From Dictyostelium discoideum (taxonomy: Eukaryota), in assembly GCA_000004695.1 (NCBI GenBank), contig CM000152.2, forward strand, positions 1,600,001-1,664,000: a stretch of DNA of 64,000 nt, read 5' to 3'. Positions 4,115 through 64,000 of this stretch are shown here, piece by piece. The number at the start of each line of letters is the position of its first letter. The first letter of the stretch is position 1. A model generated the notes under the pieces. The model worked only from the letters and a program-made list of their open reading frames with translations. It ran no database searches and had not been told where the DNA came from. A program made the translations under genes and the position numbers.

Positions 4115-5062
4115 TGGTATTATTATCGATATCATTTGTTGTTAATGGAATAGTGTCAATTGGTGAAGTAATTGTGACAATATTTTTTGTTGGTGATAAT
4201 TTTTGAATAGCACTATTGTCAATATTATTACCATTTAAATCAGAATGACCATCTAAATCTAAAGTACGATTATGATAATCATTTATTGAACCAGATTCAG
4301 AATCTAAATCAGATTCATTATCAGATTCAGGTGGCATTAAATAAGAGATTAAAGTTTTCCAAACTTTTCTATCACCATAAAGTTTTAAATCATTTAAACT
4401 AATGTTTGATTCTAAACCAATTAAAGGTGGACCTTGTAAATTTGAAAGTGGATCGATTTCATTGGTTTGAGGTGAAGTTGAGTTACTGCTGCTACGATTT
4501 GTAATTGGTCTTCTAAACATTAGATTACCTTTTAGTAAACATTGACCTGAATAACTATTTATATTGATTCTAGCTGGCATTGAATCTGAAGATATCGATG
4601 TAATGGATTTATTATATTTCTTTGTTTGTTCAATATTTGTATTACACAGTTCATTCTTTATTAAACCTGAAGAGAATGATGCAACCTCTTGAATATTCAA
4701 TGTATTAAATAAAACTGATAGGATAGTTTCACGAATTGGTAATTGATAAAAAGTAGTATTGGTTTCACGATTAATTGGTTTAAATATTGTATTGGCTGAT
4801 GTGAATCCAAAATGTAATCCTTCACCTTTAAATCTAAATCCTGAATCTTGTTGTGCAAAATTATCCATCAATTCTAATTGATATCTTTCAATATGAAATT
4901 CATATGAAAAATCTGAATGTTTTGGTGGTGGTGGTGAATCATCATTAATATCACCTCCACTACCACCACCACTCATACCATTACTACCAACATTAATTGG
5001 TGGTGTTAATGATCCATTTGTTGCTGCTGTTATACCATTTGCATTATTATTATTACTATTAC

Positions 5063-5096
<34 letters not shown>

Positions 5097-6195
5097 TGTC
5101 GATGTTGAGGGTGATGATACAGTTGTAGTTGTTGGTGAAGTTGTAGTATTAGAGAAAGCACCTGCAGTACTTTGTGAAATTGGTGTAACATTTAATGGTG
5201 TTAAATTACTTGTAGATGATAAATCTGATTTACTTAATTGTTGACCATTACTATCTGTTATTGATGTTGATGATGATGATTTATCTTTTTTCTTACTTGA
5301 AAATGATAAAGAAGATTTTAATTTCTTTCTATAAGATTCAAATGGTTGTTGTGAAGATGGTGAAGAAGCTGGTATAGCTCTTGCAAGAGTTGCTTGGAAA
5401 TTATTAATTAAATCACTAAGTGAATGATATTCTGATAAGGTCCATTTCAAATCCAATTGTTTAAAGAGTACTTCAATCTTTGCTGATATTTGAATCCAAT
5501 CTTTTATTCTACGTTTTGAAGAATACAATACTTTCAATGGCATATTCTCAAGAAGTGTTTTTGACATACCACCAATATCTTGAATCTTTATTGTGATTGA
5601 TTTGGCTGTAATTAACTTGTGTAATGATTCAACACCATGTTCTTTATCCACTGCTTTAATTTGACTTAAATCACCTGGTTGAAAATTTGAATTGGTCGAT
5701 TGTATCAATATATCATTAATTTCAATCATTAATCCATCACCATTTAAACTAGCTATATTTAATTTCAATTTCTTTACTTCAATTTGTAAATTCTCTGTAA
5801 TTTCATTTCTTTTCTTTTCTTTATTTTTATTTTTAATTCTAAATATATATAAATAATTTTATTATTATTCTAATATAAAATTAAAAAAAAAAAAAAAAAA
5901 ATATAAATATAAAAAATACTTACTTTTTTAATTGTGAATGAAATGGTTGAATTTCTTCAGGTTCTCTTAAATTTAATGAAATGGTTTGAAGAGAAATTAC
6001 AATTGGTTCTTTTTTAAAACTAGTCCATGGTATTTTAGCTGATAGACTATCACAAGATGCATTTACAATTTGGAATTGTGGTGGAATTAATAATAATTCT
6101 TGTATAATTACTTCATTTAAATCTGAGGAAATAATAAAAATAATAATAGTATTAGTAGTAATTAAAAAAAAAAAAAACTATTATTTCCTATGAGG

Positions 6196-6231
<36 letters not shown>

Positions 6232-6352
6232 TACCTAAATCCACCAAAGTTCCTTCTCCTTTCATTAAGGACATTGAAAAATTATCAGATTTGAAATTTT
6301 TTATAAACATTTTGAAGTACTTTTTAAGTACTTTTGATACAATTGCTTCCAT
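1965..6352 (-). CDS. Chorein-N domain bridge-like lipid-transfer protein (VPS13/ATG2/SHIP164-BLTP3 superfamily), about 1395 aa, 3 exons: 6352..6235, 6122..5924 and 5838..1965.
   Basis: Exon 1 MEAIVSKVLKKYFKMFIKNFKSDNFSMSLMKGEGTLVDL ends at a GTAAGT donor in phase 1. Exon 2 DLNEVIIQELLLIPPQFQIVNASCDSLSAKIPWTSFKKEPIVISLQTISLNL is the canonical chorein-N motif (IPW...P.V..L). Its GTAAGTA donor is in phase 2, and the TTTAG acceptor at 5840-5839 joins in frame to the 1267-aa ORF. The M at 5768 in the ORF track is a TTG inside exon 3, so the track misses exons 1 and 2. The C-terminus is a coiled coil. Confidence 0.7.
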
Positions 6353-6756
6353 TTTATTATTATTATTGTTATTTTTTTTTTTTTTTTTTTTTTTTTTTAT
6401 TATATTATAAATATCTAGTTTTTATATATTAATATTATTAATAAATAATTTTAAAAAAAAAAAAAATAAAAAACTATAATATTCCACAGTAATTCAAATT
6501 CTTTTATTATATTTAATTTAAAAATAAAATATTTTGTAAAAGTACAACAATTATTAATACTATAGTAAAAAAAAAGTGTGTTTGTATTTTTTTTTTTTTT
6601 TTATTTATTTGTAGAACACAAGATTAATTTTTTTTTTTTTTTTTAAATTTTTAATTTTTTTTTTATTTTTTTATTTTTTATTTTATTTTATTTTTTATTT
6701 TTTTTTTTATTGCTAAAAATGAACACACCTACGTGGGTTATAATAAAAACTTTTTC

Positions 6757-6792
<36 letters not shown>

Positions 6793-7167
6793 ATTTCATA
6801 TCCCAAACCCCTACCATTTTTTCTCGTTTTTATTTAAAACACATGTTTTGTTTTATTTCGTTTTTTTTTTTTTTTTATAAAAATTAACCAATTTTGCTTT
6901 TTCTAGTATTATTTAGTTATAATATACTTTAATTAGTTTTTATTTTTTATAGGTTATGAATAATGATTTATGGGAAAAGTGAAATGAATAATTTCAAAAG
7001 GACAAATATGGTTAGTTTTAATTGTTAAAAGGTTAATTATTATTGAAAATGGTCGATTAATCAAGTTTAAATCAATTTCATTGGTGGTATTTATAATTTT
7101 CACAAGAAAATAAAATTAAATAAAAAAAAAAGAAAAATAAAAAATCAAAAAATTAAATAAAAAGAAA

Positions 7168-7208
<41 letters not shown>

Positions 7209-8910
7209 AAAACAAAAAATCAAGTCGAAAAAAAAAAAAATGAATCAAATTAAATTATACATATGGTGATTCTATTAAAATCCAGGAAAAGAAAAAAAAA
7301 AAAAAAAATTTTAATTAATTTCATACACAAATTTAAATAATTCAAAAAGAAGTATAATTCGTAAATGGTATTGTATCTTTTTTCCACACAAAAGATAGAA
7401 TTTTAGAATTTTTGAAAAAAAAAAGAACAAAAATCGACATCAAATTAGTGGTAAGAGAATATGGCATTGTTCATATCTCTTTCTCCCCTGTCTCCTCCCC
7501 CCCTTCACAATTAGTTAATTGTTTGCGTGTGTGTGTATTTGTTGTTTGTTCCACATCTCCACATAATCATCAATCAATTAATTAATTGTTTTGTTATTAT
7601 CTTATAATAGAGTATTGTTTTTTTGTTCTATTTATTTTTTCAATATTATTTATTATTTATTAATAAATTTTTTTAAAAAAAAATAATTGCACCACATTTG
7701 TATCAGTTTTATATCTTTTTTTTTAAAATTTTCACTATTTATACAAAAATTTTATCAGTCAATAATTTTTGATCTATCTTTTTTATATTTAAATTTTTCT
7801 TTTTTTATTTTTTTTATTCCATTTTTTTTTTAATCATTTTTATTCTCAAATAATTTATATTTATTTGTTTTTAGTTTTAGTTTTTTTTTTTTTTTGTCCT
7901 ATATATGTATTTTTTTTTTTTTTTTAATTATTAGTATTTTTATTTTTGTTTTTAAAATTTTTTTAAATTTCCACTTTTTTCCAAAAATTATTTTTAATTG
8001 TTTTGTGAATTTTAAAATCAATAATTTGGATTATTATTATTTTAAAAAAAAAAAATTAAAAAATAAAAAAACTCACAATTTGTAAATTGTTTGGAAGGAA
8101 TTGATTTATTAGGGTCGAGAATCACCTTTTTTGTTGATGAATATTAATTTTATAATGGTTTTGTTTGTATCCCAAATAAAACAATCTTGTAAAATTAATA
8201 TTCTTTATCTCTGTTTTTCCTTTTCTTTTCCATATTTCCAACTAAGCTCAATTTGTCTTGTTTTTATTTCTTTTTTTTTTTTTTTTTTTTTTTTATAAAA
8301 TAATAAACATTTTATAATTTTTGAATTTCAGCAACAATGTTTTTATTTTTTTATTCAAAATTCATCTTCAAGAAAAACATTTCCTTTAAGTGATTGGTCT
8401 ATCAATTCCTATCTTTCCAAAAGAAATCCTTTTTTCAAATAATCAATTCAAATTTCCAATTCAAGTATTTTCAATTCGTATTATTTAAAATATTTAAAAG
8501 TATGTACATATTATTATTTATTATTATTATTTTTATTTTTTATTTTTTGGGGGTTGGTTTTAATTTCTGGATTTCAAGAATTAAGGTTAGTTTTTAAATT
8601 AAGTGTATTAAAAAAAAAGTAAAATAATAAAAAAAATAATAAAAAATAAAAATGAACAATATTTTAGTAATTTACATTATATAAAGATCGAACTTTAAGT
8701 TTTATATATTTTTTTTTATTTTCATTTTTTTTTTTTTTTTATTTTTATTTTATTTTTTTTTTTTAATTAAAAAAAAAAAAAGGTTTACTGATATTTAACT
8801 TGATGGGTTTCATTTGGGTCGCTAAAAATAGAGTAAAAAAAATAAAAAGAGTCAGTTTCTTTCTTTTTTTTTTTTTTTATTTATTTCTTTTAAAAAATAT
8901 GTTTTGATAC

Positions 8911-13036
<4,126 letters not shown>

Positions 13037-13247
13037 TTGTATGGAAATTTATAACCCAATTAAAAATTATAAATAACAAATAAACACATATATTTATTTA
13101 TTTCAAATTCTAAGTATTTGGGGCTTAATTTTATTAATAAATAAATAAAAATAAAAAAATAAAAAAAAAAAAAAAAGGAAAAAATTAAAAAATAAAATTA
13201 AAGGCTTTTTTTTTTAAAAAAAAATTAAAAAATAAAATTAAAGGCTT

Positions 13248-13279
<32 letters not shown>

Positions 13280-13621
13280 TTTATCTTTTTTTTTTTTTTA
13301 TTTTTTTTTGTTTTTGTTTTGAAAACAATAAATACCCCTTTAAAAAAAAAAAAAAAAAAAAGTTAAAGAGAGATCTTTTTTTCAAAATCATAATAATAAT
13401 TTAAAACAAGTAATTTAATCTCATTGTTTTTTTTTTTTTTTTTTTTTTTTTTTTTCTTATTATTATTATTATTGTTATTATTATTATTTTTATTATTATC
13501 AATTTTCCAATAGCACAAATATATTTATATATATATAATATTGTAATAATAGTAACTGTAAAAATAAATCAAGATAAAATAGGTAATTAGCAATAATACC
13601 CAATAATAAAAGAACTAAAGA

Positions 13622-13688
13622 ATGAGTCAAAGTGAAGATTACTCTACAGAGAGTCAAAAAAAAGTGTAATTATAATAAACATTTATAA

Positions 13689-13719
<31 letters not shown>

Positions 13720-13732
13720 CTCTCTCGCACCA

Positions 13733-13763
<31 letters not shown>

Positions 13764-14302
13764 CTCGATATTGTTTTTTTTTATTATTTATATTTGTTTA
13801 CTATTATTTTATGTAACTAACTGTTATTTTTTTTTTTAAAAAAAAAAAATTTACGTAAAAAAAAAAAAAAAAAAAAAAAAAATAATAATAAATAAAAAAC
13901 CAACAACTAAAACAGATATACAATTTGGGCAAATAATATTTTAAATAAAAGAAGTTTACATATTTCAGATTTATTTGAAGATTTAAGAGATGGTGTTTAT
14001 TTAATAAACATATTAGAGATATTAACCTCTGAAAAGTCTGAAAACTATATTGTCAAACCAAAGAATAGATTACAACAATTATCAAATGTTCAATTAGCAT
14101 TAAACGTTATTGATAGATGGGGTATTAGTTTAGTTAATTGTAGACCAGAACATTTAGTTGATAAAAATAGTAAAATGATTCTAAGTTTAATTTGGAGATT
14201 AATTTCAAAATTTCAAATTCAACAATTTTTAACTGATGAAGATTTTGGTTTATATGATAATAGTACTAGTAGTGGTAGTGGTGGTAGTAGTAGTGGTAGT
14301 AG

Positions 14303-14368
<66 letters not shown>

Positions 14369-17300
14369 TCATCCAACAGAATTAATTAGATCATTTTCAG
14401 GTATGATACCAAATGTTTCATCAAGAACATCAACAAGTATTAGTAAACCAACAGTAACAGCAAAGGAAGCATTATTGAGATGGTGTAGACGTGAGATTGA
14501 GTCATATACCAATGCAACTAGTATAACGAATTTCAGTAAATCATTTCAAAGTCCACAATTATTCTATTGTTTAGTTCATAAATATTGTCCAGAGAGTATT
14601 GGTAATTTAGAGAGTATTTCGAAACAAGATGAAGTTGATGCGTTAAATAAATGTTTTGATATTGCAGAGAAACAATTAGGTATTCCAAAGTTTTTAACAC
14701 CTCAAAATATCATTGAAGGTCCAATCGATGAATATTGTGTTATGACTTATATTTCTTATTTTTTAAATTATCATAGAAATCAATTACAACCACTACCATC
14801 ATTACAACATTCAATTTCAACTAATTCAACCACTGCCACCACCACTACATTCACAAAAGGTCATCAAAGAGTATCTAGCACAGGTTCAAATAATTCAAAT
14901 GCCTCAACAATTAGTAATGATTTAAATGTATTATCATCAACTGTATCAATATCATCATCATCAACTTCTACAACAGCAGCAGCACCAATAACATCATCAT
15001 TATCAACGTCATTTACAACAGCAGGTTTACCTTCAACTACATCATCATCATCAACAACCACAACAACATCAACTTCACTATCAATACCACCATCACAAGG
15101 TGTTAGTAAAAAGAGAGCATCAATATCAGTTAATACAAATGTTAGTAGTAGTAGTAGTAGTAGTAGCAGTAGTAGCAGTAGTGGTAGTAATAGTAATAGT
15201 AATGCTAGTGGATCAAAAACACCATCACTATTATCTACACCAGAGAAATTAGCATTTACTTCACCAATAAACTCACCTTCATTATTAAATGATAATAAAG
15301 TATCAACTTCACCAAGACCTCAACATAAACCACAACCACCATTATCACCACAACAACAACAACAACCAACTGTACAAAATTCACAACAACAACAACAAAT
15401 TATTGAAATTATAAATAACTTTGCATCAGAATTAAAGAAATTCTCTGAAAGACATGAGGGAATGTTAATTAAAACAGCGGCTATTTTAGATGAAAAAGTT
15501 AATAGATTAGGTGACAAATTAGATCAATTAGAAACGAAAATATCTTCAATGAAAAATGTAATCTCATCAATAACAGAAAATCATCAATGTTCTCATCACC
15601 ATCATAACCATAACCATAATCACAATCAGCAACAACAACAACAACAACAACAACAATACAGTGAAGTAAGTTCACCATATTCTGATAAGAGGATTCAATC
15701 ATTAGTGACCTCACCAATTTCATCACCATCATTAACACCAACCTCACCAATGACTCCACCACAAAATGGAACAAATACAACTACAACAACTACAACTACA
15801 ACTTCAACTTCAACTACAGTTCCAAGAAAAGAAACTCAACAAGAGAAAGAAGAAAGAAGAGAGAAAAGAAGAAGTAGAAGAAAAGAAAAAGAAGATAGAA
15901 GACAACAAAGAAATGCAACATTAAAAAATAATAATACCACCACCACAAATTTCTCTAGTGGTGGTGGTGGAGGAGGTATTGATCCACATGGTACATTAAC
16001 ACAATCATCATCATCATGTTCATTAGTTGATGAAGCACATGATCGTGAAGAGATTAAAAAGATTATAAAATCACAAGCATTGGTTAGAGGTTATTTAATT
16101 AGAAAACAATATAAACGTATAAAGAATCGTAGAGAAGTTGCCCAAGAGATCTTAAAGACCGAAGAAACCTATGTCAATAGTTTGACAGTGCTATTCAATG
16201 AATATCTAGTACCACTAAAGAATGAAAGTGCAGGTATATCATCAATCAGTGCAGACAATGTGAAAACATTGAATAACAACATCAATGTAATCTTAAATAT
16301 GAACAACATGCTTCTCAAGAAACTTCGTGAAAGAATGACAACACCATGGCATTATAGACAATTGTTTGGTGATATCTTTTTCAAGATGAGTGATCTCTTG
16401 AAATGTTATATCGCCTATGTCAATCACTACAATCGTGCCCTCTCCACTGTAAATGATTTCACCAAACATTCAGGATTGAACGAGATGATCAATGCAACCT
16501 TTTTAAGAACTCATCAACAATTGCGTGATCTTATCATTATACCAGTTCAAAGAATTCCAAGATATGTACTATTGTTGGAAGAAATGTGTAAAGTTACAGA
16601 GACCTCTCATCCTGATCATCAACAACTAAGTCAATCGTTAACAAAGATGCAATCGATAGCTGACCATGTAAATGAAAAACGTAGAGATTTTGAAAATGTT
16701 ATTCATGTCTCTCTTTTACAAGATGCTATCACTGGCTTCAATATTATGGAATACTCTTCACTACGTTATATTATGGAAGGTGACCTTCAAGCTCATATCA
16801 TGAGTGGTGGTAGTGGTTTTGGTACTGCTATCGCTGGCGTCGTTGGTAATGCTGTCTCTGGTACCAATGGTGGTGGTGGAAGTTCTGGTTCAAACAGCGG
16901 TAGTGGTGGTTCAAATTCAAACTCTGGCGGTGGTAGTGGTAGTGGTGATCTTGGTAAAGGTGTAACCACTCCATTACATGTATTTTTATTCAATCAAATG
17001 ATGGTGGTTTGTAAATATAAAAAGGGTAAAGATAGTTACTTCACCAATAAAACCCTCTTTGGTAATGTAAACAATGAAAAACATAAATCAAAACAACCAA
17101 AATATAAATATTTATCTCATCATCTTTTAACCTCAAATACAAAATTATCAAGTAATAAATCTGAAAGTAAGTAAATAATAATTCTAATAATAATAATAAA
17201 AAATAAAAAAAATAAATATATTAACAAAACTTTTTTTCTTTCCAAATTATTATTAGATTGGTTTGGTATTGATAATGGTTCAGATTATAAAAGATTTTTT

Positions 17301-17399
17301 GCAAGAACTGTTGCCGAAAAAGATATGTGGGTTCAACATATTCAACCATGCATTGATAAAGCCACCGAAATTAAAACACTCAAAGATAATAAGAAATAA
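13622..17399 (+). CDS. Rac guanine-nucleotide exchange factor with CH, IQ, DH and PH domains (same architecture as RacGEF1). Exons are 13622..13665, 13916..17166 and 17257..17399.
   Basis: Exon 1 MSQSEDYSTESQKK plus GT joins, via a GTAATT donor in phase 2, to exon 2 (V)YTIWANNILNKRSLHISDLFEDLRDGVYLINILEIL...LVNCRPEHLVDKNSKMILSLIWRLI. Together these form a complete calponin-homology domain (QKKxxTxWxN, DLxDG, LIW). The gene continues with an S/T-rich linker, a coiled coil, an IQ motif (IIKSQALVRGYLIRKQYKR) and a DH domain (EVAQEILKTEETYVNSLTVLFNEYLVPL...IPVQRIPRYVLLLEEM). A GTAAGT donor at 17167 and a 90-nt intron lead to the PH C-terminus WFGIDNGSDYKRFFARTVAEKDMWVQHIQ. Confidence 0.7.
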
Positions 17400-17462
17400 G
17401 TTATCCGGATTTTCATTAGAAATATCACATATTTATTTATAATAATTTAAATTTTAAAAAAG

Positions 17463-17496
<34 letters not shown>

Positions 17497-17568
17497 AAAT
17501 ATATTTAATAAAAAAAAAAAAAAAAGAAAATAAAATAAAAAATTTATATAATTTAACTTTTAAAGAAG

Positions 17569-17600
<32 letters not shown>

Positions 17601-18502
17601 TTTAATCAATGAAGTGATCTCAACAAAATATGATTTCATCCAATCAAATTTTTATTTTTATTTTTATTTTTATTTTTATTTTTATTTTTATTTTCCAAAA
17701 CATTTTTTTTTTTTTTTTTTTTTTTTGAGGACAATTTATAATAATTGATCCCAAATCTCTAGTGTGACGGAATCTTTTTTAAAAACCAATTATTTTAATT
17801 AATTGTAATAATTATGGTTTTTTGATTAATTTTTTTTTCTTTTTTCGTTTATGACCCTCTATCTTCCAAAAAAAATAAAAGATAATCACCTGACTTTTTC
17901 GTAAAATATATTAATTTTATTTTTTTTTGAATTTTTTTTTTTTTTATTTTGGATTTTTTTTTTGATTTGATTAAAAAAAAAGATTTGCTTCTAAAATTAG
18001 GTTCCTTTTTGATTTTTTAAAAAGGTTTATTATAATTAACTATTTTATTTTAATTTTATTTTTTATTTATTTTTTATTATTTTTTTTTAAAAAAACGATT
18101 TTTTTTTTTTTTTTTTCTTTTTTTATTGTTTTATTTTATTTTAAAACATTGTTATTAATATTTCATTGTGTGTGGTTTTTTTTTTTTTTTTATGTTGCCA
18201 AGTTATATATAAACAATTGTCAAATAGTTATTAATTATCCGTACTTAATTACCCCCCCCCCCCTTTTTTTCTTTTTAATTTTTTTTTTTTTAATTTATTA
18301 TTTTTTAATTTTTTTTTTTTTTTTGTGTTTAGATTAATTGATTAATATCATTAAAAATTTTAAAAATCGGCTTAAGGAAAAAAAAAAAAAAAAAAAGTGT
18401 ATAAAAAAAAAAAAAAAAGAAATAAAAAAAATAATATAATTATAGATTAATAAATAAAAACAATAAGAAATTATTTTTTTTTTTCCAATAAAAAAAAAAA
18501 AA

Positions 18503-18713
18503 ATGACACATAAAAAAGATAAAGATAATGAAAATTTATCAGAAAAATTAGAAATTCAAAATAAAGAAATTAAAGAGATTAAATTATCAATAAAAGAAAT
18601 TACAAGATCTATTGAAAATGTTTATCAATTATTATTAACCAATAGGAATTTATGTAGTCATTGTCAACAACAAAAATTGAATAATAGTGGTGGTGGTATC
18701 AACAATACCAACA

Positions 18714-18811
<98 letters not shown>

Positions 18812-19200
18812 CTTGTAAATAATAACCATGTAAATAATAATAATAATATTAATATAAATAGTAATGGCATAAATAATACTATAAATAATAATAATAATGT
18901 AATTAATAATAGTAATGGAAGTAGTAGTAATTTATTGGGAACAATAAATAATAGTATAAGTAATAGTTTAAATAATCATGAACAAATTAAATTTTTACAA
19001 AGAAGTAAAACCTTTTCACAAGAGAGTGATATTCTTACACAAACTCTCACTGATAGAGCAAATTATTTAAATAATAGTTTTCAACAAATTGGAAATAATG
19101 GTAATAGATCCCCAAGAAATATATCACAACCACCATCACCATCTTCACCCTCATCATTATCATCTTCTTATTCTTCAACTTCATCTTCCTCATATTTAAT

Positions 19201-19239
<39 letters not shown>

Positions 19240-20851
19240 TTGTAATAATAGTAATAATAGTAGTAGTAATAATAACAATAGTAATAATAATATAAGTAAT
19301 ACACCACCAAAAGTACCAATATTACATTTAAAAAAAGATGTTTCAAATCCAGGATTAATTAAACAATGGATAAGTGATACAGTTAGAATTAAAGCAGATG
19401 ATAAAAATGTTGATGAGAAAATAATAAAATTAGATATTGGTGGTAAATTTTATTCAACTTCATTGAGTACATTAACAAAGTATCCAAATTCAATGTTGGG
19501 TGTAATGTTTTCTGGTCGTTATGAATTACCACGTGATAAAGATGGTAAAGTATTCATTGATAGAGATGGTAAATTATTTGGTTTTATATTATCCTATCTA
19601 AGGGATGGACCATTATGGATACCACCAGTTGATATGGATTTAAAGAGAAGAGTCGAGGTTGAAATGTCCTATTTCGGTCTCCCAAGTATTCAATATACAA
19701 CTCAAGTCGGTATGAGTCCAATGTCAACACCACGTTGTGTTTGTGATGTTAAAAATCAAACACTCGGTCAAAATAGTGAACATCAAGGTATTTGGGAAGA
19801 AATTAAAGGTATGACTACAGGTATAAAATCATTTAGATTATTAATTACAATGAATAATACATTATATGCAATTACTGAACGTATTCATGAACAATCAAAT
19901 GATATTAGTTTAAATAGTGGCAATAACAATAGTAATAATAATAATGGTAATAATACTAGTAATAATGTCAATAGTAATAATAATAATAATAGTAGTATAA
20001 TAATAAATAATAATAATAGTAGTAGTAATAATTTATTAAATTGTAATATAAGTAGTAATAGTAGTACAAATACAAGTGGTAATAATAGTCCAAGTTTAAG
20101 TGGTGGGTCATCATCAGTTACAATTCAATTTGAAGAATATAATATTAGAAGTAATAGTTGGAGTTATATTTGTCCAGTATTAGATTCAATGACTCCACAT
20201 TATTTTGCAGCTGGAGTAGTTGGTGATAGTATTTATGCTTTCCCCGACGCAGGTTTACAACAATCAATCTTTAGATACGATGCCAAAGAAATGAAATGGA
20301 AAAACACTGAAACCAAACTCCCATGTGGTAAAACTGGTTTCAATTTAGCCGTTTTAGATGATTACATTTATATTATCGGTGGTTATAAAGGTTCAACTGT
20401 ATCTGATTCTGTGGAAAGATATCATCCAAAATCAAATAGTTGGTGTTCAGTTAGTAATATGTTAACAAAACGTGCTGAAGGTTCAACTGTAATTCATGAT
20501 AATAATATCTATATTATTGGTGGTTCAATTCCAAATACAACCATTGAACGTTATAATCCTCATTCAAATGTTTGGTCATTCGTTTGTAACCTCAGTAATG
20601 GTCAATTCAAAGTTTCAACAGCCGCTTCAATTGAAGGTAAAATTTATGCAATTGGTGCTGAAAATGAATCTTATTCAAACAACATTGTACTCCAATTCAA
20701 TCCAACTACAAACTCTTGGAAAAGAGTGGCTCCATTATTGGCAAATTCTTATAATCCTCATAGTTCCGTGGTTTTAGATCGTTTCATTTATTTCATTCCT
20801 TGGGGTGGTGGTGGTTCAAATGTTCATAAATATGAAAGTTGTTTTTGTTAA
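18503..20851 (+). CDS. BTB/POZ (T1/KCTD type) plus Kelch-repeat protein with an N-terminal coiled coil and poly-N linkers.
   Basis: Single ORF. The T1-type BTB reads IIKLDIGGKFYSTSLSTLTKYPNSMLGVMFSGRYELPRDKDGKVFIDRDGKLFGFILSYLRDGPLW. It is followed by Kelch blades (AAGVVGDSIYAF, LAVLDDYIYIIGGYKGS..VERYHPKSNSW, IHDNNIYIIGGS..IERYNPHSNVW, IEGKIYAIGA..QFNPTTNSW). Confidence 0.7.
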
Positions 20852-57800: not shown

Positions 57801-58913
57801 ATAATTTTAATTCTTTTTCTACTATTTTATATCCCATTATAACCAACCAGTAAATTTTAAGGAGTAGAAAAATGTTAATAAAAACAAAAAATATTTTAAA
57901 AATTAATTTATTGGAGAAAATAAAATTTTTTAAAGGAATAATGGTAATGATAATTTTATTAATAATGTTAATTCATCCTCTTTCTGGGATTTTAATCTTT
58001 TTTAAAGACCAGCTTTTCCCAATGCAGTTGCAACATTAAGGAGTAAATTGCTTACAAGACCTTCTGAAATTTTATTTTGAGTGAATTGAGTTGTGGTGTC
58101 AGATTTGTTGACATCATTTGATTTGTTTAAGTTGTTAACTTTTGAAATTGAGGAGATTGAAGCTATTAATTATTAAAAAAAATTAGAATTAATAAAAATA
58201 TACATATTTTTTTTTTTGAAACTCTAATTTCATTTTATTAATAATTACTATAGAGCATTTTAAAATATTGATTTGTTTTAATAGGTTGATTTAATGGATA
58301 TGATAATGTTTAAATTTACTCAAATTTATATTAAAAAATTTAGATATTAAAAAAAAGAATTTAAAATTTAAAAATATTAAATATCAAAAAATAAAAATTA
58401 ATTGAAAACATTGATTTACAAATATTATCCTTAATATTTGTAAATTAATTAATTACCACTAAGAAATGGTTTTGATATATTTATGCATATTAAATTGTTG
58501 CTTTTGTTTAGATTAATACTAAATAACAATTTAAAAATAAAAATAAATTAAATTTGTAATTTAAATTTTTTACCACCAAATTAAGTGGGGTATCTCATTT
58601 TCTATACTTCTATTTAAAATTTATATTTAATCAATATCATTTTCAGTATCAAACCAATTGGGGGATATTAAAAACCAATTGATATTTTAATTTCCCCCAA
58701 TATCTAATCTTATTTAATGTATTATTTATAAATATAAACTATGGAGATATGTTTTTTATTTAAATTAATATATTTTATTTATTTATGATAATATAAAAAA
58801 GAGAATAATAAAGAAACACTGTAGAAAAGATTAATGATTTTATATTTTCAAACATTTTTTTTTATTTATTTTTTTTTTAAAAAAAAAAAAAAGAGAGTTT
58901 TTGTTAAAACGTT

Positions 58914-59552
58914 TTAGATTATTAATTGTAAAAATAAAAGAACTGTTGAAAAAATTAAAACTCCATTGACTAGTGGTGTTGAAGCAGTTGATTTTTGATA
59001 CTCTATATTTTTATCGTCATCATAATCAGTGACATACATTTTAAGTGTGCCATCAGATTGTATAACAAGTTGTTCAGAAGATGTTAATACAATACTTTCA
59101 GGTTCTTGGTTAGCTTGGTTTACTGGGACATGCTCGTAGCATTTTGAAACATCAGAGGTACCTTGAATTGAGATAATGTAATCACCACCCAAGAGGTAAT
59201 TGTTCATTTTGATTGAAAAAGACAAGTCACGAGGGATACACATTGAGTATTCCAATGGAGTGGTAGTATATGTCATGTTTGTTTTATCACTAAAAGTACT
59301 GGAAAAGATTAAAGATTCTGGTGCTCCATCAGATGTGATACGAAGCTGCACTGAAACAGAATCATATTCATCTTTTGTTAGTAAAAATTTTGATACCTGG
59401 TGATTTGGAACATTAAATTTTTCATTAATTACTGGCCCACTGGCGATAACAAAAAACTGACCATTATCATACTTTTTCAAGGTATATGATTGTACAGAAA
59501 AAATTAAAATATTAATTATTACTATTAAAAACAATAAATTTAACACATGCAT
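58914..59552 (-). CDS. Predicted secreted or GPI-anchored protein, 212 aa, with an N-terminal signal peptide and a C-terminal hydrophobic tail.
   Basis: MHVLNLLFLIVIINILIFSVQS looks like a signal peptide. The protein has a mature domain with 2 Cys and ends ...STASTPLVNGVLIFSTVLLFLQLII*, which looks like a GPI-attachment signal. Confidence 0.45.
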   Translation of the reverse strand: MHVLNLLFLIVIINILIFSVQSYTLKKYDNGQFFVIASGPVINEKFNVPNHQVSKFLLTKDEYDSVSVQLRITSDGAPESLIFSSTFSDKTNMTYTTTPLEYSMCIPRDLSFSIKMNNYLLGGDYIISIQGTSDVSKCYEHVPVNQANQEPESIVLTSSEQLVIQSDGTLKMYVTDYDDDKNIEYQKSTASTPLVNGVLIFSTVLLFLQLII

Positions 59553-60010
59553 CTTGATATTTTAGTTTTAAACTATTAAATATAATAAAAAGAAAATATA
59601 AATTAAAAATAAAAACAATTTATAGTGAAAAACTCGTTTCAAAAAAAAAACAAACAATATATTTTTTTCATTGTATTTTTTATTTATTAATTTCAATTTA
59701 CAAAATTGGGGTTGTTTTATATCAATTTACAAAATTGATTTGCACAACAAAAAAATTTTTTCTTTTTATTTTTATTTTTATTTTTATTTTTATTTTTATT
59801 TTTATTTTTTTACTTAAAATAATAAGTGTTGCTATAAATAATACACACAAACACACAAATTAAAAAATAAATATATTTTTTTAATTTTTCTTTTATTTAT
59901 TTATTTTTTAATTTGTGTGTTTTTTTAATTCATTTTTTTTTTTAGATCATTTTTTTTTAGATCATTTTTTTTTAATTCATTTTTTTTATTTATAACATAT
60001 AATTTTAAAA

Positions 60011-60469
60011 ATGACAAGTAAATATAGGTGCCAGCATGATAAATTTTCGTTAAAACAATTAAAAAAAAGAGGATTCAGTCTTTACCTTGATGAATTATTT
60101 GACAAAGATGAGTTTCCAAATATTGGCTACTGTACCGAGGAATGTAAAGAAAAAATGAAAGAGATTTATAGGATAACCTTTGAACAATATCTCGAAATAA
60201 TAAATAAATATTACAATGATAGCAGAATTTTTGATTATAACTTAGAAAACAACCCTGAAGAATGTGATCTTTGGATGTATCGAGAATTTTTAAGTGCTCG
60301 ACCCCCCCTCTCACCTCAAGATGAATATGCTAGAATGGCAATAAAAGCAATGAAAGTTGGTATTCAAGATGGAAAGCCTGTTAGATTATGTGAATTGCAG
60401 CCTGGTGTACAATGTGATTTCGATGCAACAAACCTACCTGGCTCTGAAGAAGATGAAAGAGAAAAATAA
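60011..60469 (+). CDS. Orphan ORF of 152 aa, function unknown, with locally elevated G+C and atypical codon choice.
   Basis: MTSKYRCQHDKFSLKQLKKRGFSLYLDEL...ARPPLSPQDEYARMAIKAMKVGIQDGKPVRLCELQPGVQCDFDATNLPGSEEDEREK*. It uses codons rare for Dictyostelium (CCT GGC TCT, CGA CCC CCC CTC, CAG CCT GGT). It lies directly beside the retroelement 3' end, on the opposite strand. Confidence 0.3.
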   Translation: MTSKYRCQHDKFSLKQLKKRGFSLYLDELFDKDEFPNIGYCTEECKEKMKEIYRITFEQYLEIINKYYNDSRIFDYNLENNPEECDLWMYREFLSARPPLSPQDEYARMAIKAMKVGIQDGKPVRLCELQPGVQCDFDATNLPGSEEDEREK

Positions 60470-60746
60470 AATTAAACAATAAGTGTTAAATAAAAAGAAC
60501 TGTTTTTTGAAAAAAAAATTCCCATATAAATAAACAAAGAAACCTCTCTTTATTTTTGGTGTGTTTTTCGTTGAAAATTAAACGATATTTATCTGAAAAA
60601 TCTGAGGATGCCATCTCAACTGATTTTTTAATTTTAATTTTTAATTTTAATTTTTTTTTTTTAATTTTTTTATTTTTTTTTAATTTTTTTTAAGAACTGA
60701 GATATTTTTTGATATAAAAACCAAAATTGTCAAAATCGAAATTGGT

Positions 60747-63700
60747 TTTTTTTTTTTTTTTTTTTTTGATATAAATAAACTATTGTAGTATACAATTAGT
60801 ATGTTATTTTTATTTATTTATTTAAGGTTTTTTAGTTTTTGTGAATTTAAAATGGTATGTTATTTTAGATTAGGTAATTAATAATTAATTGGTGGTGTAA
60901 TTGTTGGAATTGGTTCATTTGTGTTTATGCTCCATTCTTTTTTAAATTTTTTGATGGTTTCGGACCATTGGGTTTCTTTTTGAGTTTTTGTGAGGTTGTT
61001 TTTAATTGAGTATTGGTTAAAGTTGATAATGTTCTTGAATATTCCAATCTTATTAGCCTGTGCCATTTTGATTTTAATATATCATAATCTAGTGTTGTGT
61101 TGTTTATTTGGTTGTTCCAATTTTCAATTGATTGAGTTATATTGATGTCAAATAATGATTTGCATAACCATATCCATATTTGGTGAATAACTAATGAGAT
61201 TATGTTCCAATATGCATGTGTTCTGACTAGATCAAGATTTGTGTTTATATAATTCCAGTTGAACTTGTATTTTTTATATTGTGCGTTTTCTGCAAAATGA
61301 AAATTAATATTGATAGTTGGATCTGGTTTAAATGCTTTGTTGTTTGTTTGTGGTTTATAAATGAGTGTGTATAATTTTGTTGTTTGGTTTTTTGTTAGTG
61401 ACCAGTTTTTGTTTCCATTGCAATTTTTATATATAAAATATTTTAATTTGTCGTAGTTTATGAAGTTGATTGTGTGCTGACAATTGAAAAACAAATGACC
61501 ATAGGGATCATTATTCATTTCATTGTTGCAAATGGGGCAAACTTTGTTGTGTAGATGATTAATCGGAAGACATCTAGCATGGAATCTTTGCATTGTATCA
61601 CGGCCTTTTGGATCTTTTAATTTTTGAATTTTGACAAATAGTTGGTCGTATGTGTATTTCCATAATAGTTGTATTGATTGTTGGTGCGAAGTAAGAAGTA
61701 GATCTGAATATTTCTTGCCAATATAGTCTTTTGATTTACATTGGTGATTGTTGAGTATTGTCGAGTAGATTTCTTTGAGTGTTGGTGGTAGTGAAATATT
61801 ATTTGTGTTTAATGTTTGAGAGGTTTGATTTTTTATTAATATTGGTTGTAGGATTTGAACTTTATCTTTTAGATGTCCAATTTGAGTTGCATAGTTTTCC
61901 CATTCTTTTTTGATTTTTATAAGGTATGGAGAAGAGATTGATTTGTTGATGATTTGATCCATCCAACTTATCATGTATAGTGAATTGTTTGCAGATTTAT
62001 GCATTTGTAAAAATCTGTTGTATATCCAAATCTTTTGAGCAACTTGTCGTAATTGTATATTCCACATACCCCAACCACCTTCTTTTAATGGTTTTAACGA
62101 TCTATCATAACACATCAAAGGTATTTTTGCACGTGATTGGATGGTTGATGTGTTTTTTTCAATGGAATTGGTATCGAGAGTTGGTGATTCAGAATTTGCG
62201 GGAGAATTCATAAACCATGAGATTAATTTATTAATTTGAATTTCTTCATCTTTTGTAAATTCTTCAAGGAATGATAAATATGTTATTGGTGATAGTGAGT
62301 AGGTGTTTATGATGGTTGTTTTTGTTTTTAATGTTGTTCCACTAGTTTTCCATAGTACTAATGATTTAATCAGTGTTTTCATTGTTTCTGGTAATTTCCT
62401 ATGTAAACCATTATGATTAAAGAAATAGCCAAGGACTCTTTCTGATTGATCTTTTTTGGTTATTGGTATTCTTTTTGATTGTGGAATGTTGTTTATTATG
62501 TGTTTATCAGTGATTTTGTGGGGGTTGATTTCTATTATTGCACTTTTGTCAAAATTTAATGATGATGATGTTGAAGCGCAGAAATTATCGAAATGTTTGA
62601 TTGATTGTTGTTGTTGTTCGTAGTTGATGTTGTAGGTTGTAGAGTCGTCTGCAAATTGGGTAAATTTGATTTTAATTTGTGGATTGGGTGAAATTGGTAA
62701 TCCAATTATTGTATTGTCTGCATTTATTGTTCTTGCTAATATTTCAATTACAATTACAAATAAAGTGGCTGAGATTGGGTCACCTTGTTTTACACCTCTT
62801 TTAATATCGAATTTTCTGGTCGTTTTACCATTAATTAAAATTTTTGCTTGTGAGTCAGATAATAGCTTGTGGATTAAATTTATTAATTTTATTGGTATAC
62901 CAATATGAATTAATGTTCTTTTAATACTATCGTGAGAGATAGAATCAAATGCTTTAAATAAGTCAAATAGTGTGATGATACCAGGGAGGTTTTTAGATTT
63001 GAGGTAGTTGATTAATTCATTGATGTTGATGATGTTGTCTATGATGAATCTGTGGGGTACGAAACCAGTTTGGTTGTTGTTGATGAAAGGAAGTATTCTC
63101 AGAAGACGTGTATTGATTACTTTTGAGAGGATCTTGTAATCAGTGTTTAGAAGTGTAATGGGAAGACGATTTGATATGAGTAAGGGGTTGCCTTTCTTGT
63201 ATATTGTGTGTATAAGACCTTCGGTGAATTCTGTTGTGATGTGGTGAGGATTTTCTAGTATATCGTTGAATAATGTAGTGAGAATTGGTTTAACTTGGTT
63301 TAAATGATTAATGTAGAATGCATTTGTAATGCCATCTGGACCGGTGATTTGTTGGGGTTACAGGTTTTAATTGCAGCTTCAACTTCATCTTGTATAAATG
63401 GTGAGTCTAAACCATTCCAATTTTCATTTTTTATGATGGGCCATGTGTTTAGCATGAGCTGGTGAGTAATTGGACAACATATTTGTAAGCTATACAGATT
63501 TGTGTAGAATTCAACAAACGCATTTTCAATTTGGTCGGGGTCGGATGTAATGATGTTACCATATTGGATTGATTCAATTTTTGCATCTTTTGATCTTTTG
63601 TTTAGTATTGCTGATAGATACTTACTAGGTATTTCTCCATTTATATGTTTTTTTAATATGTTTGTGTGGTTTTGATGTAATTTGTTTTTGTTACATATAA

Positions 63701-64000
63701 TATTGTATTCAGCAATGCATTGTTCTTCAAGATGTTTGAATTTTGCTGCTTTTTCTAATAGAATTTGTTTTGCACGTTGAGTTTGTTTGTCTTTATTATA
63801 TTGATAGTTTTTTAGAGTTTTAATAATTTTTGATTTTACTTTTGACCAATTTGTAAATTGATTGATTGATGTGTTATTGTGATTAATTATTAAATGATTG
63901 ATAATATTGATTGCTTCATGGTCATTTGCAGTACCAGGTGATAATATCCATCTTTTCTTATGTTTATTTATTTGAAAAGGTGAAGAAATTGTTGTTGATA
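60747..64000 (-). mobile_element. Non-LTR (LINE-like, TRE/DRE-type) retrotransposon: 3' part with the poly(A) tail at the low-coordinate end. It runs off the window at 64000.
   Basis: Minus-strand translation from 64000 downward gives a reverse transcriptase: NPNKSP(G)PDGITNAFYINHLNQVKPILTTLFNDILE...QTGFVPHRFIIDNIINI...ITLFDLFKAFDSISHDSIKRTL...INGKTTRKFDIKRGVKQGDPISATLFVIVIEIL...KFTQFADDSTTY (the FADD box). A CCHC region follows in the 485-aa ORF (HARCLPINHLHNKVCPICNNEMNNDPYGHLFFNC). The stop is at 60925, then a 3' UTR and a T21 run on the plus strand at 60748-60768, which is the poly(A) tail on the element strand. Confidence 0.75.
60925..64000 (-). pseudogene. Retrotransposon ORF2 (reverse transcriptase plus C-terminal zinc knuckle), disrupted by at least one frameshift; 5' part outside the window.
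   Basis: The RT reading frame breaks at about 63340-63360: ...TCNPNKSPVQMALQMHSTLII* in one frame, whereas the conserved continuation GPDGITNAFYINHLNQ is in the +1 frame (a missing G in CCGGTCC). Further short frame changes and stops occur between 62383 and 63300. Confidence 0.6.

Follow-up and report, generated by a model that had tools for sequence, protein, structure and literature searches.

A decayed, poly(A)-tailed TRE3 copy, probably of subfamily TRE3-B, in a tandem array downstream of a tRNA-Cys(GCA) gene of Dictyostelium discoideum

The minus strand at the right-hand end of the window (the whole stretch of DNA analysed, 64,000 nucleotides) was identified with high confidence as part of a defective TRE3 retrotransposon copy, probably of subfamily TRE3-B. 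The 3.25 kb at its 3′ end, about two-thirds of this broken copy, fall within the window, and the rest lies past the window end. The locus is an ordinary one: the copy is already in the reference annotation and TRE3 biology is known. A preliminary description made from the letters had proposed a minus-strand, poly(A)-tailed, frameshifted non-LTR element of the TRE group that was cut by the window, and this was confirmed by its RT domain, its CCHC motif and an A22 tail. The features of the element inside the window were as follows.

60746..60767, minus strand: poly(A) tail, A22 (plus-strand T22), read from the sequence; all family copies end in AGTTTATTTATATC followed by A13-A22
60768..60877, minus strand: 3′ UTR of 110 nt ending in ...GTTTATTTATATC, between the consensus ORF2 stop and the tail; aligns with intact copies
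60878..64000, minus strand: ORF2 remnant with linker, RT, CCHC region and C-terminal region, carrying two frameshifts; 95% protein identity to intact ORF2
60878-60880, minus strand: consensus-frame ORF2 stop, from the ORF list and comparison with an intact relative
61480..61539, minus strand: Cys-His motif CPICNNEMNNDPYGHLFFNC, CX2CX10HX4C, in the zinc-finger region of ORF2, read from the translation
62509..63198, minus strand: reverse transcriptase domain (Pfam PF00078 RVT_1, E = 3.5e-30, residues 268-497 of the joined translation)

The RT/CCHC ORF2 predicted at the outset was thus recovered. The T-run was also present, but as T22 at 60746-60767 and not as T21 at 60748-60768, the coordinates of the preliminary description being displaced by 2-4 nt. 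A few A's of the A22 tail may have been part of an A-run in the target.

The 95% identity of the ORF2 remnant was obtained against the intact 1275-aa ORF2 proteins P0002 and P0150, which are multi-copy D. discoideum proteins with endonuclease and RT. The window edge cuts the remnant just past the endonuclease domain. Both domains (PF03372 and PF00078) were carried by the intact relatives and by the extended locus, in the ORF2 order endonuclease-RT-zinc finger; the layout of TRE elements was reported to be APE-RT-zinc finger (PMC5006619). In a second D. discoideum assembly, GCA_054883475.1, the same locus was identical in sequence to the window across 57915-64000, and the whole copy could be followed past the window end, occupying the window-equivalent positions 60746-65984. 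The extension suggested in the preliminary description therefore delivered the 5′ end, at 65984. It was found that 45 nt were absent from the 5′ end of the full copy and that ORF1 was broken too. No LTRs were present at this locus, where tail-ended elements formed a head-to-tail array without terminal repeats, as is the structure of non-LTR elements.

The intact relatives were 5305 nt long, with an ORF1 of 402 aa and an ORF2 of 1275 aa. In an intact copy ORF1 ended at nt 1371 and ORF2 started at nt 1368, one frame back, which constitutes a -1 overlap; the corresponding junction of the window copy lies outside the window. For TRE3-A, an ORF2 of the APE-RT-ZF type, a -1 frameshift overlap with ORF1 and an oligo(A) tail have been reported (PMC5911963). 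A phmmer search of PDB with intact P0150 gave human LINE-1 ORF2p (PDB 8SXT, 8C8J, 8UW3) as the best match of solved structure, with E = 2e-42 to 5e-43 from the end of the endonuclease through the RT, whereas R2 reached only 1e-20. An APE-type endonuclease combined with an L1-like RT that is closest to L1 ORF2p places the family in the L1 clade. LINE-1 ORF2p resembles the family of the copy also in its C-terminal Cys-rich motif and in presumed target-primed reverse transcription. L1 differs from TRE3 in that it does not target tRNA genes and in that its ORF1 protein is unrelated (PMC5006619).

The family of the copy agrees with TRE3-B in being a non-LTR family with two overlapping ORFs, an endonuclease-RT-zinc finger ORF2 and a poly(A) tail, and in being multi-copy with several intact members. 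The subfamily is probably TRE3-B, as judged from length, abundance and a single neighbouring gene identifier. The published consensus lengths are 5279 bp for TRE3-B (43 copies) and 5229 bp for TRE3-A (67 copies) (PMC5006619 Table 1), compared with 5305 nt measured here for this family and 5222 nt plus a 5′ A-run for the family of the neighbouring elements. The two listed protein clusters of this family at 90% identity had 29 and 13 members, 42 in all, versus 79 for the neighbouring family. DDB_G0291688 was a member of a protein cluster of this family, and its identifier is next to DDB_G0291686, which is labelled 'TRE3-B ORF2' by dictyBase (PMC12405889). TRE3B also exists as a Repbase ID (PMC1635306). 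The literature full text was searched for gene IDs and accession numbers that tie the copy to a named subfamily, and none was found.

The tRNA gene to which the copy belongs was found in the second assembly, in locus L004.

L004 4360-4433, same orientation as the elements: tRNA-Cys(GCA) (ARAGORN; Rfam tRNA, 61.4 bits)
L004 4529-9770, orientation of tRNA-Cys: TRE3-A-like copy 1, from the sequence of the locus
L004 9789-15037, orientation of tRNA-Cys: TRE3-A-like copy 2, from the sequence of the locus
L004 15038-20276, orientation of tRNA-Cys: TRE3 copy of the window, from the sequence of the locus

Counted from tRNA-Cys, with which it is co-oriented, the window copy comes third in the tandem. 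At its 5′ end it directly adjoins the A27 tail of the neighbouring element, and at its 3′ end the tail may run on into an A-run of the target. The first array member starts 77-95 bp after tRNA-Cys; TRE3-A-like copy 1 has the direct repeat CTAAC on both sides, with an A-run after each. The two elements between the copy and tRNA-Cys appear to be TRE3-A, as judged from their length of 5222 nt plus the 5′ A-run (published 5229 bp) and from their protein cluster, the most abundant one. TRE3-A (formerly Tdd-3) shares its group, layout and target zone with the window copy, but the TRE3-A-like ORF2 was only ∼44% identical to that of the window copy, and the DNA of the two families gave no BLAST cross-match.

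ARAGORN found no tRNA gene in the 64-kb window, in line with the earlier remark that none was visible in 60470-60750, and neither ARAGORN nor Rfam (at E<=1) detected one in the same locus over an interval that begins 10 kb to the left of the poly(A) end and stops 6.4 kb past the window end. The preliminary description had expected a tRNA gene just beyond the window or just left of the poly(A) end. A tRNA gene does anchor the array, but tRNA-Cys(GCA) lies ∼10.6 kb upstream of the 5′ end of the copy and ∼12.6 kb past the window end, having been separated from the copy by the insertion of two younger TRE3-A-like elements. [quoted passage not shown] Sequential insertions at one tRNA gene are known to give tandems (PMC5006619, supplementary Table S2 note).

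Seven other DNA copies of the family were seen, in five other loci. Relatives began 37, 45, 31 and ∼30 bp after tRNA-Lys, a further tRNA, tRNA-Thr and tRNA-Leu, respectively (L002, L007, L008 and L010), and all these tRNA-adjacent relatives were downstream of the tRNA, co-oriented with it and with the 5′ end towards it. Their target-site duplications (TSDs), of 10-17 bp, bracketed the whole element. This arrangement bears on whether the copy could be a TRE5-type element, a type whose insertions lie ∼50 bp upstream of a tRNA gene and point the opposite way. TRE5-A, of the sister group, has an ORF2 with the same domain order, and both groups are associated with tRNA genes (PMC5006619). The downstream, co-oriented placement of all family copies that have a tRNA gene next to them makes a TRE5-type origin highly improbable. 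Neither the upstream, opposite insertion nor the modular UTRs of TRE5 were seen here.

The copy is unable to encode its own proteins. Its minus-strand frame was open from 63998 to ∼63345, after which the next frame stayed open as far as the stop at 60925. Alignment with intact copies revealed the following lesions of ORF2.

63345, minus strand: frameshift 1, one C missing compared with intact copies, splitting KSP/GPDG just upstream of the RT domain; same in the second assembly
63087, minus strand: in-frame 3-nt deletion, FIINNNQ to FINNNQ, as compared with P0150
61025, minus strand: frameshift 2, one A missing; the last ∼55 ORF2 residues are out of frame, with the stop at 60925 instead of 60878

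A frameshift at about 63350 had been noted beforehand and corresponds to the single missing C. It had been given as the minimum number, and the second frameshift at 61025 and the 3-nt deletion at 63087 had been missed. The consensus ORF2 C-terminus ...NFNQYSIKNN...PPINY is still encoded in the other frame, in the ORF 60878-61066. Against one intact copy, 68 substitutions and 10 deletions were counted in all, and 52 substitutions were private to the copy. Compared with TRE3-B, the window copy is thus dead: in addition to the missing 5′ 45 nt it has nine internal deletions, five of them frameshifting (three in ORF1 and two in ORF2), and 10.6 kb of younger elements separate it from the tRNA gene.

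Gene models nevertheless cover this remnant. All residues of the AX4 model DDB_G0279127 (951/951 aa) mapped onto the ORF2 remnant, and a second model, ACTFIT_010390, exists in GCA_054883475.1. Such models are what a domesticated, single-copy RT-like host gene with an intact ORF would have, the case that the preliminary description had set against its own reading. But the family is multi-copy, its clusters of 29 and 13 proteins being formed at >=90% identity. The copy is poly(A)-tailed and truncated at its 5′ end, and the models skip its two ORF2 frameshifts by invented introns, an artificial intron bridging frameshift 1 in both. The probability of a domesticated gene is therefore regarded as negligible.

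Elsewhere in the window, strong GC skew occurs at 9-13, 27-31 and 42-45 kb. Other transposons were considered as its source and rejected, these regions being ordinary host genes. They code for a polyN/polyQ protein, a DEPDC5/Iml1 homologue and eIF3c.

At the 3′ end of the copy, a repeated motif had been noticed on both sides of the T-run. The two copies were indeed found, but TTTTTTGATATAAA occupies 60705-60718 and 60762-60775, not 60707-60718 and 60766-60777, with a gap of 43 nt (27 unique nt and 16 T) instead of 45. This 14-nt sequence occurs exactly twice in the window; in dinucleotide shuffles 0.12 matches were expected per window, and two matches appeared in 2/100 shuffles. The features outside the element were the following.

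60705..60718, minus strand: second TTTATATC+A6 (plus-strand TTTTTTGATATAAA), outside the element, read from the sequence
60719..60745, minus strand: flank of 27 nt directly after the tail, CCAATTTCGATTTTGACAATTTTGGTT, with TTTCGATTT inside at 60733-60741

A 14-nt direct repeat close to an element end could be taken for the TSD of the element or its remnant, or for the bracket of a small nested insertion, both of which had been suggested. However, both copies are at the 3′ end, whereas a TSD would bracket both ends, as the real TSDs of the relatives enclose the whole element. The copy at 60762-60775 is nothing else than the last 8 nt of the element itself, TTTATATC, plus tail, and this octamer is terminal in every family member. 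A nested insert is likewise disfavoured: in neither orientation does the 43-nt interval end in a 3′ poly(A), with the A-run on its 5′ side (minus) and the T-run on its 3′ side (plus), a polarity that fits no retroposed insert. Either origin is consequently considered very improbable.

The flank copy of TTTATATC+A6 is then either a coincidence or the footprint of an aborted first insertion attempt. In the latter case, RT would have started at the nick by ...TATCTCAG, copied A6 and the last 8 nt, stalled, left a 27-nt filler and restarted on the poly(A) by template switching; CCAATTTCGATTTTGACAATTTTGGTTTTTATATCAAAAAA would then have no place in the pre-insertion site. The order flank-T6-GATATAAA-27 nt-T22-GATATAAA-element is what such an event would leave, and the low expectation for the 14-mer points in the same direction. 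Of the 8 occurrences of TTTATATC in the window, both strands counted, only these two are followed by A's. On the other hand, the similarity is limited to 8 nt and an A-run, while A/T runs of >=6 number 562 in the 64 kb; a doubled 3′ end was seen in 0/7 other family copies, and no duplicate of TATCTCAG... was seen upstream of the array. The 27 nt themselves also argue against a filler. TTTCGATTT agrees at 7/9 positions with GTTCGATTC, a motif that adjoins other family insertions and might be an external B box, and it is situated just downstream of the insertion point, like GTTCGATTC in L008; in L007 the TSD overlaps the motif. This suggests native flank, and a short-word BLAST of the window and all loci for another source of the 27 nt returned only the flank itself. 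The 27-nt flank is thus probably native target DNA, and an aborted first attempt is regarded as unlikely. The pre-insertion target, as reconstructed, would read ...GATACTAAC(A)nCCAATTTCGATTTTGACAATTTTGGTTTTTATATCAAAAAATATC...

An empty allele was sought in other strains via the 152-aa flanking gene, and none was found. Loci L005 and L006 were considered as allelic sites and rejected, since they have only the 152-aa gene in common (84-87% identity) and are paralogous rather than syntenic. For the 212-aa and syntaxin-7B flank proteins, no other-strain variants were present in their clusters.

From the literature and homology to L1, the insertion of such a copy would proceed by target-primed reverse transcription. 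The AP-type endonuclease of ORF2 would nick the target, and RT would copy the poly(A)-tailed RNA straight onto the nick. This would account for a 3′ end in poly(A), for copies that are often truncated at the 5′ end and for short duplications of the target. The choice of target would depend on the RNA polymerase III machinery at the B boxes of tRNA genes. At the present locus, the window copy would have landed first, in an A-rich site 77-95 bp downstream of tRNA-Cys(GCA), its 5′ 45 nt being absent on arrival or lost later. Two TRE3-A-like elements would then have inserted in turn at the same spot, each moving its predecessors farther from the tRNA gene, and the outcome would be the head-to-tail array tRNA-Cys, TRE3-A-like, TRE3-A-like, window copy. 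The window copy, which presumably decayed since insertion, is probably the oldest of the three stacked elements, an undated order judged from position and decay.

These results are of relevance mostly for annotation, as TRE3 elements have been well characterised, and so have their targeting to tRNA genes and their accumulation in tandem. The gene models DDB_G0279127 and ACTFIT_010390 represent pseudogene fragments, and their introns are there only to bridge the frameshift. If the aborted first attempt were true, the doubled terminus (TTTATATC+A6, 27 nt, TTTATATC+A22) would record how the TRE3 RT begins synthesis. The locus provides a tidy example of three successive insertions on one target of <=18 bp, and a TRE3 copy without a tRNA gene within 10 kb still fits tRNA targeting once the younger insertions are counted.

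The preliminary description of a poly(A)-tailed, frameshifted retrotransposon of the TRE group was borne out by a T22 tail, an RVT_1 domain, frameshifts including a missing C at 63345, and 95% identity to D. discoideum endonuclease+RT proteins, which were the closest proteins to the element. All the features were found, with coordinates shifted by 2–4 nt from those first assigned.

Features of the element (minus strand, window coordinates)
60746–60767: poly(A) tail, T22 on the plus strand
61025: 1-nt deletion compared with intact relatives, shifting the frame of the final ~55 codons
61480–61539: CX2CX10HX4C motif, joined translation
62509–63198: reverse-transcriptase domain (Pfam RVT_1, E = 3.5e-30), joined translation
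63087: in-frame 3-nt deletion compared with intact relatives
63345: frameshift, one C missing, splitting the conserved ...NKSP/GPDG... just before the RT domain

An untranslated stretch of 110 nt separated the tail from the long coding region, which was open on the minus strand from 63998 (window edge) to ~63345 and then in the next frame to 60925. The normal C-terminus (...NFNQYSIKNN...PPINY) was still encoded by an ORF at 60878–61066.

It was found that 951/951 residues of DDB_G0279127 ('partial', reference strain AX4) mapped to window 63938–63414 and 63255–60928; this very copy of the element is therefore already annotated in AX4, and the finding was already known. The 158-nt 'intron' of this model (window 63256–63413) is a mere bridge across the 1-nt frameshift at 63345. 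The gene model ACTFIT_010390 of the assembly GCA_054883475.1 likewise bridges the frameshift with an intron, and both models are pseudogene fragments annotated as proteins. The same locus in that assembly (CM142509.1) showed 99.76% identity over 14 kb and was identical to window 57915–64000, including both frameshifts, indicating genuine lesions rather than read errors. The ORFs of 152 aa and 212 aa that flank the element were DDB_G0279121 and DDB_G0279119 of AX4. The former (window 60011–60469) belonged to a small multi-copy family, whose relatives (74–87% identity) occupied non-syntenic places in other D. discoideum-group assemblies, making it a poor anchor for orthologous loci. Elsewhere in the window, GC and AT skew was extreme at 9–13 kb because of a 923-aa minus-strand ORF (10265–13036) of almost only polyN, polyQ and PQ/TQ repeats, which had no Pfam match and is ordinary for Dictyostelium.

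The element was compared with four copies from other loci (L007, L008, L009 and L010 copy 1), which were ≥99.9% identical among themselves and 98.7% identical to it. Three of them were 5305 nt without tail, and that of L008 was 5276 nt, with 29 nt missing at the 5' end. An intact 402-aa ORF1 and a 1275-aa ORF2 with a −1 frame overlap were present in 4/4. By sequence, the best solved relative of intact ORF2 was human LINE-1 ORF2p (E about 1e-42). Relative to an intact copy, the element carried 68 substitutions, 52 of them private, and ten deletions.

Deletions in the element
5' end: first 45 nt
5' UTR: 1 nt
ORF1: 1, 3, 18, 1 and 14 nt, three frame-shifting
ORF2: 1, 3 and 1 nt, two frame-shifting

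The longest ORFs left were 485 and 466 aa, and the element is a fossil.

Family insertions lay downstream of tRNA genes, with the 5' end of the element towards the tRNA gene and in its orientation in 4/4 loci. This matched the published behaviour of TRE3 and was opposite to that of TRE5.

Target sites of the family (distance from the tRNA gene to the inserted DNA)
L002: tRNA-Lys(UUU), 37 bp, TSD CTATATTTTTAG bracketing the whole insert
L007: tRNA gene, 45 bp, TSD GATTCTAGATAG
L008: tRNA-Thr(AGU), 31 bp, TSD TAAATCGGGTCA
L010: tRNA-Leu(UAG), about 30 bp, TSD TTTTTACGAA

Several side observations were made at L002 and L009. At L002 9830–9852, an extra GGTTCAAATCCCAGAAAAAAGT with a B-box-like motif preceded the canonical 5' end of one full-length copy, and other copies had different short extra sequences there; these may be products of 5' transduction, with read-through transcription of a source copy that lay next to an external B box. 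At L009 7690–7800, the parts of a tRNA-like gene appeared permuted, with a T-arm/B-box segment (GGTCATCAGTTCGAGCCTGAT) ahead of a D-arm/A-box segment (TTAGCTCAGCGGTAGAGCG). ARAGORN found no tRNA there, and Rfam gave only a weak Y-RNA-like (YrlA) match (E = 0.0018). An intact copy of the element's TRE3 family began about 40 nt downstream, so this gene still seems to be recognised as a target. Tiny insertions ending in ...ACACCGCTTTTAGGT and then A10–A15 (L002 about 15170–15205, L009 about 13170–13200) were present where TRE3 lands in two unrelated loci, and look like copies of a different poly(A) retroelement with extreme 5' truncation (16–19 nt and a tail).

A 14-mer (octamer plus A6) at window 60705–60718 and 60762–60775 had been put forward as a possible TSD remnant or small nested insertion. 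On the element strand the region reads ...GTTTATTTATATC-A22-CCAATTTCGATTTTGACAATTTTGGTT-TTTATATC-A6-TATCTCAG..., in which the first 'copy' was the family's invariant terminal octamer followed by the element's own tail. The second was absent in all seven other family copies, each of which had one terminal octamer. Because both copies lie on the 3' side of the element, they cannot be its TSD. Nor is the stretch that separates them a small retroposed insert, since it lacks a 3' poly(A) on either strand; either origin is highly improbable. With 0.12 occurrences of the 14-mer expected per window, and only 8 of the octamer on both strands of the window, the coincidence is not trivial. Nevertheless, the match comprised only 8 informative bases beside an A-run, where A/T runs of ≥6 numbered 562 per 64 kb, and was spotted post hoc. 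The 27 nt between the copies contained TTTCGATTT; GTTCGATTC, which we read as a putative external B box, occurred a few nt downstream of the insertion site in L008 and was overlapped by the TSD in L007. This suggests that the 27 nt are native flank. Chance is very likely the source of the repeat, and the footprint of an aborted start with template switch is an unlikely one.

The locus was extended past the window via neighbouring gene models (L004; window coordinate = 81022 − L004 coordinate). A tRNA gene had been expected just beyond the window or at the poly(A) end. None was found within the window or near that end, but tRNA-Cys(GCA) was present ~12.6 kb beyond the window end (window-equivalent 76589–76662), so that the expectation was right in kind and wrong in place.

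Array behind tRNA-Cys (L004 coordinates, all on one strand)
4360–4433: tRNA-Cys(GCA), ARAGORN; Rfam tRNA, 61.4 bits
4434–4510: spacer, 77 nt
4511–4528: A18 run
4529–9770: second-family copy 1, A20 tail
9771–9788: linker, CTAAC + A13
9789–15037: second-family copy 2, A27 tail, 98.3% identical to copy 1
15038–20276 (window 65984–60746): the window's element, A22 tail

The second family measured 5222 nt, not counting a 5' A-run of variable length, with a protein cluster of 79 members, and the element's family (5305 nt) formed two 90%-identity protein clusters of 29 and 13 members. TRE3-A is reported as 5229 bp with 67 copies and TRE3-B as 5279 bp with 43 copies (PMC5006619, Table 1). DDB_G0291686 is 'TRE3-B ORF2' in dictyBase (PMC12405889), and the adjoining ID, DDB_G0291688, was a member of the element family's cluster. 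The element is a defective TRE3 copy that was already known and annotated. Judging by lengths, cluster sizes and the adjoining ID, it probably belongs to TRE3-B, and the two copies next to it to TRE3-A.

Sequential insertion at one tRNA gene, with newer elements nearer the tRNA, has been documented (PMC5006619, Table 1 footnote c and supplementary Table S2 note). The direct repeat CTAAC, each time followed by an A-run, lay on both sides of the proximal copy (second-family copy 1), which shared 99.75% identity with a copy in L008; the distal element, that of the window, was the most decayed in the array. These sequence features agree with sequential insertion. The reconstructed empty site would be ...GATACTAAC(A)nCCAATTTCG..., 77–95 bp after tRNA-Cys, and all three insertions would have taken this one site; for the two earlier insertions, the TSDs were inseparable from A-runs. 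At L010 18509–18550, the poly(A) tail of a copy ran straight into a 5' fragment (CGAAACAAAGAAATAAACGAGAATTTATACATATAATAAATAA) from an older member of its family. Here a copy has inserted into a resident element at the latter's 5' end, the same sequential process in the family of the window's element.
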